Shown: positions 33,886 through 37,401 of the stretch, one piece after another
Numbering within the stretch: position 1 is the first letter of the stretch
How the letters are laid out: every line of letters starts with the position of its first letter
Made by a program: the position numbers and the translations under genes
Notes under the pieces: model-generated
Database searches by the model: none
Told to the model about the DNA's origin: nothing
Seen by the model: only the letters and a program-made list of their open reading frames with translations
Source of the DNA: Dehalococcoidia bacterium
GTDB taxonomy: Bacteria > Chloroflexota > Dehalococcoidia > Lucifugimonadales > G963668185
Direction of reading: 5' to 3'
Assembly (NCBI GenBank): GCA_963668185.1
Contig: OY764162.1
Location: 852,754 to 916,753, forward strand
DNA: 64,000 nt

Positions 33886-35172
33886 ATGGCAGATCAGTGG
33901 TGTGAGGTGACCGTCGAAGAGATTGCCGAGAAAGTCGCCATGGGGCCTTTTGGGTCGTCTATCAAAGTCGAGACGTTCGTGCCGGAAGGTGTGCCGATCA
34001 TAAGCGGGCAGCACCTGCACGGCTTCAGAGTTGATGACACGCCGGGGTTCAACTTCATCAGCTCTGAGCACGCCCAAAAGCTCGCGAATGCCAATGTCCA
34101 CAGAGGTGACGTTGTATTCACTCATGCAGGCAACATTGGGCAAGCCGCGTACATCCCAGAGGGCTCACAGTTCGAACGTTATGTAATCTCACAGCGCCAG
34201 TTCTACCTGCGATGTGATCGGTCCAAGGCACTGCCTGAGTTTGTCACGTTGTACTTCAGGTCGCCTGAGGGGCAGCACCAGCTTCTGGCCAATACATCGC
34301 AGGTGGGGGTTCCATCTATAGCGCAACCCGTGACCTACCTGCGCACGATACGGATTCCTCTCCCGCCCCTTGACGAGCAACGCGCCATCGCCCACGTCCT
34401 GGGCACGCTGGACGACAAGATCGAGTTGAACCGGCGCATGAACGAGACGCTGGAGTCGATGGCGCGGGCGCTGTTCAAGTCGTGGTTCGTGGACTTCGAG
34501 CCAGTGCGCGCCAAGATGGAAGGCCGCTGGCGCCCCGGCCAGTCCCTCCCCGGCCTGCCGTCGGACCTCTACGACCTGTTCCCGGACCGGCTGGCGCCCT
34601 CAGAACTGGGGGAGGCGCCGGAGGGGTGGGGGGTGAAGGCGCTGGGGGATGTGATAGAGATTCACGACAGCAAGCGCGTTCCCTTGAACAGTCGAGAGCG
34701 CATGGAGCGACAGGGGCGTTATCCTTACTATGGCGCTGCCGGCATCATGGATTACGTGGATGACTATCTCTTTGACGGCGTTCATGTGCTGATCGGTGAG
34801 GATGGATCAGTGGTCGATGACGAGGGTTATCCAGTGGTGCAATACATCTGGGGGCAGTTCTGGGTCAACAACCATGCTCACGTGCTCAAAGGAAGGAATG
34901 GGTTTGGCGACGAGCATCTGTACTTGCTGCTGAGGCAGATGCCCATCATGGCGTACGTGACCGGCGCGGTGCAACCCAAGCTAAATCAAGGGAACCTGAA
35001 ATCCATCCCTATCATCTTCCCGGGTCCGCCAGCGTGCAGAGCGTTTTCTGATAGGATTGCTCCAATGTTCCAGAGAGTACGTGACAATGCGGACGAGATC
35101 GAATCGCTGGTGGGTCAGCGTGACGCGCTGTTGCCGCGGTTGGTGAGGGGGGAAGTGGGAGTGGCACTCTGA
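33886..35172 (+). CDS. hsdS: Type I restriction-modification specificity subunit HsdS, full length with two TRDs
   Basis: Central conserved '[48 protein letters not shown]' and C-terminal '[17 protein letters not shown]'. Confidence 0.9.
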   Translation: [428 protein letters not shown]

Positions 35173-35331
35173 GAATAGAGGTCGCCGTGGGGTTTCGTGA
35201 ACATCTGGTCGTTGGTGAATGAGAACTGATATACTGTTGCTTAGTCGTCCTCACCCCACGGTGGCGCAACCGCGGAGGGAGGGCGTAGGAGAGACAGACG
35301 CATACGACGCAGCCAGAGGCAGTAGCAGATC

Positions 35332-35823
35332 GTGACGCTCACCCCTAACATGCAGATGTCACAACTTTCCCTGGCCTACATATCGGCGGTCGCCTCCCAT
35401 GCCGGCTACGAGGTTTCGGAGCCGAGGCTAGACTTCGACAGTGTGGACGGCACGCTCAAGTCGAGTTCCGGCGGCCGCCCACGGATCGAATTTCAGGCCA
35501 AAGCCACCACCCAGGACATCCTGCGCAGCGGACAGTTACACTTTCCCCTGCCGGTCAAGAACTACAACGACCTGCGAGCCCCCACTATGGTGCCTCGCTT
35601 GCTCATAGTGATGCTCATGCCTGTAGAGCGGGAAGAGTGGCTCACGCAGTCAACTGAGCAGCTTTGCTTACGCAAGTGCGCCTATTGGTATTCCCTGGAG
35701 GGCAAGCCCACCACCAGCAACACGTCCAGCGTCACTCTTTACATCCCTACGCAGAACGAGTTCAATGCGGCACAGTTGACCGCGCTCTTACAGAAGGCAG
35801 ACCAAGGGGTGTCGTTATGCTAG
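35332..35823 (+). CDS. DUF4365-like PD-(D/E)XK-fold (restriction-endonuclease-like) protein
   Basis: 'LAYISAVASHAGYEV...DFDSVDGTL...RIEFQAKAT' follows the D...(E/Q)xK pattern typical of DUF4365. The start is either GTG at 35332 or ATG at 35350. Confidence 0.55.
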   Translation: MTLTPNMQMSQLSLAYISAVASHAGYEVSEPRLDFDSVDGTLKSSSGGRPRIEFQAKATTQDILRSGQLHFPLPVKNYNDLRAPTMVPRLLIVMLMPVEREEWLTQSTEQLCLRKCAYWYSLEGKPTTSNTSSVTLYIPTQNEFNAAQLTALLQKADQGVSLC

Positions 35824-36941
35824 TGCAGATCAGAGACCGAAAGGCATTGTCGTCGCTCTCCCTCAGCGCTCTGCGCGCCTACTTGGGAGTGCGGGGGTGG
35901 AAGGATGAAGGTCTGTGGGGCAGCCGCCCGGCCAGCATCTTTACCGCTGGCGACGAGGCCAACATGGAAGTTTTGGTGCCCACGCGGGACACTGTCGCGG
36001 ACTATGCGGAGGCCATGGCGGAAGCGGTGGCGGTTCTCGCACTCCACGAGGACCGATCGCAGATAGAAGTGTTCCACGATTTGCAGGGAGCCAAGTCCGA
36101 CGTAATACGGTTGCGCTCCTCGAATGGACTTGCCAACGAGCGGCTGTCACTCAGTCAGAGCGCGGAGCTGCACTCCAACGCTTACAGGCTGCTTGCCGCC
36201 AGCGCACGAGCCGCCGAGAGGCCCCAACCTGCCTATCGCGGACGGCCTAGCGCGAAAGTCGAGGACTTCCTCAACAAAGTACTGCCTCTACCCAGTCAGG
36301 GCGGATACGACTTGACGCTCCATTCACCCGTCGCGTCGGACATCGGCGGCCAATCCGACATGGGCGATGAGTTCCACGTCCCATTCTCCCGGCAAGTCAC
36401 CCGCAAGCTTGATGAGGCTTTGACATACACCGTATCCGCCATTGAGGATGCGCTCGTGAAGGACACGCTGGACACCTTCAAGACGCATGTGAACAGAGGG
36501 GTCAGCGCGAATTTGTGCGCCTCAGTGTCTGAGTTGGCTACAAGAGGCCAGGGAGTCACCATAGACTTGGGATGGGCTGATGTCAGGCCATCCGACCGCG
36601 TTGACTCGCATTTCCCCTTTACCGTTGATTCGGCTGAAGTCCTATTGCAGGCTTCAAGGTCATTGAGCAGGACTGAACCGTCCATGGATGAGCAGATCGA
36701 GGCCCAGGTTGTGCAACTCGCCAGAGAACCGGATCAGTTCGACGGCAGGGCTACACTCGTTTCTACTTGGGAGGGACACCCAATCAGGTTGTCGGTACAG
36801 TTCGAACAGTCCGTCTATGACACCGTGATCCATGCGTTCAAAGACCAGTCCTACGTGAGTCTGCTGGGCGACATTTACCCAACTGCCAGAGGCTATGAGT
36901 TGCGCGCCCCCCGCAACTTGTTGGTAGTGTTGGAAGAGTAA
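35817..36941 (+). CDS. Hypothetical 374-aa protein, no recognisable motif
   Basis: The ATG at 35817 overlaps the upstream stop by 7 nt. Long ORF with normal composition. Confidence 0.6.
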   Translation: MLVQIRDRKALSSLSLSALRAYLGVRGWKDEGLWGSRPASIFTAGDEANMEVLVPTRDTVADYAEAMAEAVAVLALHEDRSQIEVFHDLQGAKSDVIRLRSSNGLANERLSLSQSAELHSNAYRLLAASARAAERPQPAYRGRPSAKVEDFLNKVLPLPSQGGYDLTLHSPVASDIGGQSDMGDEFHVPFSRQVTRKLDEALTYTVSAIEDALVKDTLDTFKTHVNRGVSANLCASVSELATRGQGVTIDLGWADVRPSDRVDSHFPFTVDSAEVLLQASRSLSRTEPSMDEQIEAQVVQLAREPDQFDGRATLVSTWEGHPIRLSVQFEQSVYDTVIHAFKDQSYVSLLGDIYPTARGYELRAPRNLLVVLEE

Positions 36942-37048
36942 CTCCCCTCGCCACGCTCACCAAGGCGGCGCTTGGGTGGGCCATCGCGCACGGGCTGGAG
37001 ATCGCGCCGGACAGGCTCGCAGTAAACCTTCGGAATAGATGAAGCGCA

Positions 37049-37261
37049 ATGCACAAGTACGAGATCATCATCTGCTGGAGCGATGAAGACGGCGTCTTTG
37101 TTGCGGAGGCGCCGGAGCTTGCGGGATGCGCGGCTCATGGTGAGACTCAGCAGGCGGCGCTGGAGAACATCAACGAGGCCATGGACCTTTAGCTGGAGAC
37201 GGCGCGGGAGTTCGGAGACCAGATCCCCAAGCCCAAGGGCGAACAGCTGGCGCCGGCATGA
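37049..37261 (+). pseudogene. HicB-family antitoxin gene with an in-frame TAG
   Basis: 'MHKYEIIICWSDEDGVFVAEAPELAGCAAHGETQQAALENINEAMDL*LETAREFGDQIPKPKG'. The TAG at 37190 sits where HicB proteins usually have Trp (TGG). Confidence 0.6.
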
Positions 37262-37401
37262 CCACCCTCCCCAAAGCCGCCGTCGAGCAGGCCGCCCTCG
37301 AATTGCTGTCAGACGCCGGCTGGCAACTCGCGCACGGGCCGGACATCACGCTGGGGCAGACGCTCCGCCGCTACCGGAACAGGGCCATCGAGGCAGCGTA
37401 G
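37258..37401 (+). pseudogene. Probable hsdR stub (N-terminal and C-terminal fragments joined, 47 codons)
   Basis: 'MTTLPKAAVEQAALELLSDAGWQLAHGPDI' resembles HsdR N-termini. '...LRRYRNRAIEAA' resembles the conserved HsdR C-terminal segment. Confidence 0.45.

Follow-up and report, generated by a model that had tools for sequence, protein, structure and literature searches.

A decayed Type I restriction–modification locus in a Dehalococcoidia genome, with an intact orphan hsdS among toxin–antitoxin and candidate defence genes

A 64,000-nucleotide stretch of a Dehalococcoidia genome (assembly GCA_963668185.1, contig OY764162.1; G000:C1:852754-916753), hereafter the window, carries the remains of a Type I restriction–modification (R-M) operon. 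The gene for the specificity subunit, hsdS, is intact, while the modification gene hsdM and the restriction gene hsdR survive only as short stubs (Table 1). The contig, C1, is 2.78 Mb long and makes up the assembly by itself, in the manner of a metagenome-assembled genome (MAG). Neither hsdM nor hsdR of this family persists elsewhere on it, and the block of DNA that holds the locus is absent from sister genomes. The best explanation, to which we assign a probability of about 0.84, is that the enzyme genes decayed by deletion and that hsdS survives as a passenger between retained toxin–antitoxin (TA) genes and defence cargo. A decayed Type I locus had already been proposed in a first-pass annotation made from the sequence alone, and comparison with intact homologous operons agrees with that proposal. 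Decay by gene loss, as seen here, is of an ordinary and known kind.

Remnants of hsdR and hsdM

The 47-codon open reading frame (ORF) downstream of hsdS had been read at first pass as an HsdR N-terminus fused to an HsdR C-terminal motif through the loss of about 3 kb from the interior of the gene. Its translation was compared by tblastn with 20-kb loci containing eight homologous hsdR genes, which are uninterrupted in G026, G012, G025, L030, and L031 and frameshifted in G001, G002, and L115 (G and L denote related genomes and loci); the evidence is pairwise and collinear. Residues 1-30/33 are 60–73% identical to the first 30–33 residues of all eight HsdR proteins. Residues 31/32-47 match positions ~913-943 of the same eight, about 2.7 kb downstream, with 75–88% identity over a 16-aa core. 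Similarity is significant for both pieces, with E values of 3e-10 (G001) and 1e-7 (L030) for the N-terminal part and 5e-5 (G001) and 5e-3 (L030) for the C-terminal part. For L030, whose HsdR has 1058 aa, the C-terminal part falls on residues 924-939, inside the T1RH-like_C domain (the LRRYQNRAIEAA stretch). The in-frame fusion of residues 1-30 with residues ~924-939, in a protein of ~1050 aa, implies that about 893 codons (2.7 kb) have been lost, close to the deletion first proposed. Homology to hsdR stops at ~37400-37410, and the last ~115 codons are therefore gone too.

A HindI-like HsdR, such as that of L030, consists of HSDR_N, SWI2_SNF2/ResIII, T1R_D3-like, and T1RH-like_C domains. The 47-codon ORF still shows the opening 30 codons of the gene and 16 from T1RH-like_C. 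Unlike the full protein, it has no nuclease core, no superfamily 2 (SF2) motor, and only a minor part of the C-terminal domain, and is a remnant rather than a member of the family. The locus thus encodes no HsdR with a PD-(D/E)xK nuclease and an SF2 translocase. Hidden Markov model (HMM) scans of the 47-residue peptide against Pfam and NCBIfam detected no HsdR families, and the peptide does not match the resident HsdR encoded at 310 kb, which belongs to a different family. An HMM match of the peptide to AAC(3), with an E value of 0.055, was rejected as spurious.

A second hsdR remnant, stub A, is 56–69% identical to HsdR residues 18-33, at tblastn E values of 0.016 to 0.4. Its identity is strengthened by locus L115, where a clear hsdR stub of 33 aa occupies the corresponding position, after the PDC-M02B gene.

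The first-pass annotation had found no hsdM in the 64 kb. This holds for a methylase gene, as none of the N6_Mtase matches across the genome falls inside the window, and no HsdM of the same family is encoded with or near hsdS; it does not hold entirely, because a 3' stub of hsdM persists. By tblastn, the stub shares 84% identity over 19 aa with the C-terminal end of the G012 HsdM, and 67–76% with four others. The corresponding stub in L115 has 93% nucleotide identity to it over 43 bp, and carries GAG where the window has its internal TAG.

The specificity gene

The first-pass description of hsdS as full length, with both target recognition domains (TRDs) and the conserved regions, is borne out by Pfam, PADLOC, and an alignment of homologues. 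The Pfam Methylase_S profile matches in two stretches (1.8e-31). In PADLOC, the Specificity_I model PDLC03089 spans residues 8-433 of 435 (1.5e-118). Full-length homologues reach 79% identity, and the protein aligns end to end with 19 of them. HsdS has, in sum, the two TRDs and two conserved coiled-coil regions of a Type I specificity subunit.

Orphan or solitary hsdS genes and decayed Type I loci have been reported for many bacterial genomes, for instance in comparative methylome studies; there, likewise, an intact specificity gene has no adjoining hsdM or hsdR and its neighbours are pseudogenised. The window hsdS does not belong to a phase-variable hsdS shufflon: it has neither inverted repeats nor an adjoining recombinase, and its family is represented by no other hsdS.

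Cargo genes around hsdS

Directly after hsdS lie two adjoining, full-length genes that PADLOC models identify as PDC-M02A and PDC-M02B, an identity missed at first pass. PDC systems are candidate defence systems whose genes are embedded in Type I R-M, BREX, and DISARM operons (Payne et al. 2024, bioRxiv 10.1101/2024.01.29.577857). The term ‘PDC-M02’ itself was not found in the literature searched. The window shares with the embedded-cassette Type I operons of that study (‘guilt-by-embedding’) the order hsdM - cargo - hsdS - cargo - hsdR. In contrast to those operons, its cargo no longer lies within a working system, as hsdM and hsdR are only stubs, and PDC-M02 is a candidate defence system.

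Between stub A and the 47-codon ORF lies a hicB pseudogene. Matches to the Pfam families UPF0150 and HicB_lk_antitox fall on its first 47 aa, and the frame is open again past the TAG. In L115, the codon in question is TGG, and hicA is present between the hsdR stub and hicB. The window thus has neither an intact hicB nor an adjoining hicA.

Related loci, intact and decayed

Several operons of this Type I family are intact. Locus L030 has the order hsdM - DUF2442 - 83 aa - hsdS (79% identical) - cargo - hsdR (1058 aa), and L113 has hsdM - cargo - hsdS - DUF4365 - PDC-M02B (82% identical) - hsdR (1050 aa); further intact examples are found in L031, G026, G012, and G025. The DUF2442 gene, the small ORF, and hsdS of the window are collinear with L030, at amino acid identities of 71%, 74%, and 78%, respectively, and 75% nucleotide identity over 33107-34984. 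The 3' end of hsdS and the PDC-M02 genes are, in turn, 90% identical to those of L116. The window locus is a mosaic of these intact operons.

Other relatives have lost parts of the operon. In L115 (an ERZ25069191 contig of 10.7 kb), hsdS is split into ORFs of 143 and 304 aa, and hsdR is reduced to ~150 aa, with ~110 N-terminal residues joined to the last ~40 at breakpoints that differ from those of the window; hicA and hicB, phd and PIN genes are present, and PDC-M02 is intact. In L114 (an ERZ25071132 contig), the order is IS110 - PDC-M02 - 154-aa hsdR stub, with an IS110 transposase gene in place of hsdS and PDC-M02 again intact. G001, which belongs to the same genus, has at C1:2861300-2871930 (L024 8301-18929) an hsdS (512 aa) and an hsdR split by a single frameshift, and lacks hsdM. 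The gene order there is M78/HTH protein, GIY-YIG fragment, hsdS, NDT-like, ThsB-like TIR, 8xMP membrane protein, phd and PIN, hsdR. In G002, hsdR has two frameshifts, and both hsdM and hsdS are missing. Some of the frameshifts in these relatives may be read errors, because two contigs are at 2x coverage, but the gene losses are not. L115, L114, G001, and G002 represent independent collapses of the same operon type.

Short stubs are also a feature of related operons, which can carry one or two extra dead hsdR starts, hsdM ends, or hsdS ends beside embedded cassettes. Under a strict tblastn threshold, 5 of the 64 related loci (L103, L089, L067, L112, and L057) have extra hsdR 5' stubs, and more do at a looser one. 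The hsdM 3' end is duplicated in at least two loci (L112 and L110), and L116 has an hsdS 3' stub at 1200-1340. Such stubs have the look of scars left when cassettes were exchanged through recombination at conserved gene ends. Stub A and the hsdM 3' stub of the window resemble them; the window differs in that the ‘real’ hsdR downstream of the stubs is deleted as well.

A model for the decay of the locus

We infer the order of events, and the deletion mechanism itself, from these comparisons. The ancestor would have been an operon ordered hsdM - [TA cassettes] - hsdS - [PDC-M02 pair] - [hicAB] - hsdR, encoding an HsdR with a HindI-like C-terminal domain. It would have lain on foreign, lower-GC DNA that was acquired horizontally and inserted between the tRNA-Met gene and the PQQ beta-propeller gene. 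Deletions would then have taken hsdM down to its 20-codon 3' stub. The hsdR gene would have lost codons ~31-923 in frame, together with everything past codon ~939, the second of these deletions terminating within the chromosomal spacer. Loss of hicA would have been followed by the TGG>TAG nonsense mutation in hicB.

The intact survivors are two TA-like modules (phd/vapC, and the DUF2442 and DUF4160 genes with the small ORF), PDC-M02A/B, and hsdS, which lies between these modules and abuts the upstream small ORF translationally. Deprived of an HsdM of its own family, HsdS can form neither an M2S1 methylase nor an R2M2S1 nuclease, and is therefore most likely a non-functional passenger. That hsdS has so far escaped damage probably reflects its small size as a target, with its flanks kept by selection for addiction or defence.

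Possible partners elsewhere in the genome

The first-pass annotation had allowed that a complete hsdMR pair elsewhere in the genome might make hsdS an ordinary spare specificity gene. A complete Type I system does exist, 540 kb away at C1:310324-319787 (L010 5324-14787), with an hsdM of 705 aa, an hsdS of 426 aa, and an hsdR of 1006 aa; it belongs to another family, so the spare-gene explanation does not apply cleanly. Between its hsdM and hsdS, this operon carries cargo of its own, a ThsB-like TIR protein (299 aa) and a KAP-family P-loop NTPase (541 aa). Downstream of the operon lies an ORF of 295 aa that has a weak ANG-1-like match.

The presence of this system, together with an intact and unrelaxed window HsdS, would be compatible with a working spare subunit that adds a second methylation and restriction specificity. 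The divergence of the components makes this unlikely. The resident HsdM is 27–35% identical to the HsdM proteins of the window hsdS family and ~180 aa longer, and the resident HsdR is 24–25% identical to its counterparts. The two HsdS proteins align at 27–38% identity over only 45–108 aa. They do not share HsdM-binding conserved regions: the generic LPP..EQ..IA motif is common to both, but the central and C-terminal helices differ. Subunits of the Type I families IA–IE are interchangeable within a family and not between families. The 310-kb system is hence an unlikely partner for the window HsdS, and complementation across families would run contrary to this established knowledge.

The genome moreover already holds another orphan hsdS, on the minus strand at C1:~1028930-1030300, which has the same N-terminal, central, and C-terminal motifs as the resident HsdS and 33–48% identity to it. 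Its TRD2 is 48% identical to TRD1 of the resident protein. This gene is a better candidate than the window hsdS for a spare subunit of the resident system. It adjoins a RAYT/IS200-like Y1 transposase gene and a HicB-like ORF.

A tblastn search of the whole genome with six proteins of the same family, made to see whether the missing genes had been relocated, found only the 310-kb system, at 24–35% identity, and no other HsdM or HsdR of the window family. The remaining N6_Mtase matches in the genome are weak and fall on proteins of 345 to 1039 aa that are not HsdM-like.

Selection on hsdS

Several features of hsdS itself sit uneasily with a passenger gene. It differs at a single site that is invariant in the 19 homologues (S>R in LVSGE), and the others range from 0 to 5 such differences. 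The ratio of nonsynonymous to synonymous substitution rates (dN/dS) against L030 is 0.09, compared with 0.08 for two genes from intact operons, although dS is saturated (>1), which limits the use of these values. Private amino acid changes number 29 in the window HsdS, 24 in L030, and 44 in L031. On these sequence measures, relaxed constraint is not detectable in the window HsdS. The neighbouring remnants, by comparison, carry up to three stop codons in ~190 codons; if these arose after inactivation, a neutral hsdS of 428 codons might be expected to have acquired some as well. This last argument is softened by the possibilities that the hicB stop is a primary lesion and that the TAG at 37399 was created by the deletion junction, and again by the saturation of dS. 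An unrelaxed hsdS fits two situations, a wreck of recent date compared with the split from its nearest known relative, or continued selection.

The absence of excess damaging substitutions in hsdS beside stop-bearing remnants is also the sole hint for a broader proposition, namely that HsdS is selected and works without its own HsdM and HsdR, whether as a recognition module for PDC-M02 or for the DUF2442/DUF4160 trio, or by pairing with the 705-aa HsdM. We regard this as very unlikely.

Retention specifically for the sake of the cargo is harder still to credit, whether HsdS were to recognise DNA for the PDC-M02 pair, in which the DUF4365 protein is nuclease-like, or its ORF were needed for coupled expression of the operon. 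Such retention would account for the position of hsdS, with PDC-M02A/B directly behind it and the small ORF abutting it upstream, and the adjacency to PDC-M02 recurs in L113 and L115. Insertion of a cassette between hsdS and hsdR explains the same adjacency, however, and PDC-M02 remains intact where hsdS is missing or damaged: in L114, where IS110 lies upstream and there is no hsdS; in L116, where only a 46-aa hsdS 3' stub remains, downstream of a resolvase gene; and in L115, with its split hsdS.

That the collapsed hsdR and lost hsdM are artefacts of a long-read metagenome assembly is the least credible explanation: the single-contig, MAG-like assembly and the frameshifted hsdR genes of sister assemblies, which could be read errors, might suggest it, but there is no repeat across which 2.7 kb could collapse, the reading frame is kept at the junction, the hsdR remnant has substitutions of its own (e.g. 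W16L), the cognate hsdM and the body of hsdR are nowhere else in the contig, and similar decay is seen on independent contigs from other samples. Passenger survival of hsdS after deletion of the enzyme genes thus remains the favoured reading.

Consequences for annotation

In annotation, the 47-codon ORF and the hicB ORF, like the two unannotated stubs, are best regarded as pseudogene remnants. The hsdS gene is an orphan without a predictable partner, and it should be assigned no Type I methylation motif. The locus adds one more case in which R-M enzyme genes have been lost while nested TA and candidate defence cargo (PDC-M02) stay intact. Short hsdM, hsdS, and hsdR stubs also mark sites of cargo-cassette exchange. 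In neither respect is it new in kind.

Genomic setting

The locus forms part of a strain-specific block inserted between a tRNA-Met gene and a PQQ beta-propeller gene. In three genomes of the same genus (G001, G002, and G003), the spacing between these two genes is only ~200–220 bp, as determined with blastn and MAFFT. The block is composite, comprising two host-like secreted-protein genes and the lower-GC R-M wreck (32.2–37.4 kb). The guanine–cytosine (GC) content across 33–37 kb is 0.57–0.62, against 0.64–0.71 in the flanks. The two secreted-protein genes, one with RCC1 repeats and one encoding 828 aa, now occupy the place where hsdM would be. Both have paralogues of ~65% nucleotide identity elsewhere in sister genomes.

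Table 1. Features of the R-M remnant and its surroundings. Positions are those of the window; aa, amino acids.
Feature	Position	Strand	State and remarks
tRNA-Met (CAT)	27501..27575	-	ARAGORN; left landmark of the strain-specific insert
Strain-specific block, 9.8 kb	27621..~37415	none	Absent from G001, G002, and G003 (blastn, MAFFT)
RCC1-repeat lipoprotein-like gene	27931-29547		11 RCC1_2 repeats; inside the strain-specific block
828-aa secreted protein	29669-32155		HExxH-like motif, no Pfam match; inside the strain-specific block
hsdM 3' stub, 20 codons (ARRLDAAI*ENLARLGFGS*)	32253-32312	+	Internal TAG at 32277-32279; missed at first pass
phd/yefM antitoxin	32370-32630	+	Intact; Pfam PhdYeFM_antitox 7.6e-14
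vapC PIN toxin	about 32630-33034	+	Intact; Pfam PIN 3.2e-16
DUF2442 gene	33077-33367	+	Intact; Pfam
DUF4160 gene	33360-33620	+	Intact; Pfam
Small ORF, 82/88 aa	ends 33883	+	Intact; stop 2 nt before the hsdS ATG
hsdS	33865/33886-35172 (ORF)	+	Intact; called product 428 aa from ATG 33886
PDC-M02A (DUF4365 protein)	35332-35823	+	Intact; PADLOC 2.3e-56, residues 1-159 of 163
PDC-M02B (373-aa protein)	35820-36941	+	Intact, overlaps the DUF4365 gene; PADLOC 4.6e-95, residues 2-370
hsdR 5' stub A (…ATLTKAALGWAIAHGLEIAPD…)	36944-37015	+	No ATG; 30-bp internal gap; directly after the 373-aa gene; missed at first pass
hicB pseudogene	37049-37261	+	TGG>TAG at 37190-37192; TGA overlaps the ATG of the hsdR remnant; no hicA
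hsdR remnant, 47 codons	37258-37401	+	37258-37347, HsdR aa 1-30; 37351-37398, HsdR aa ~924-939; stop 37399-37401
Right junction	37395..37413	+	Coincides with the end of the hsdR remnant
PQQ beta-propeller gene	starts 37524		Right flank of the insert

A search for att-like repeats at the island ends yielded only an 8-mer and a nearby 6-mer, and the 8-mer alone is expected ~0.7 times by chance in the two regions compared. At the right junction, 37395-37413 (AGCGTAGG..GTCAAGACT) is weakly similar to the tRNA-side spacer at 27589-27622 (AGCGTAGG…GTCAAGCT). This likeness, on which little weight is placed, may represent an imperfect direct repeat or duplicated target, or microhomology with hsdR (GCGCAGGTC) used by the deletion.

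Further downstream, in the intergenic region after the PQQ beta-propeller gene, two short hairpin repeats lie at window positions 38679-38799. One unit of ~45 bp (GGCCTCTGGCCTCTTCCCCAGTCTGCTGGGGAAGACTGAGATGGGG) has about 300 blastn matches in the genome, and the three sister genomes contain many as well. It resembles a repetitive extragenic palindromic (REP)-like element, which fits the presence of a RAYT transposase elsewhere in the genome.

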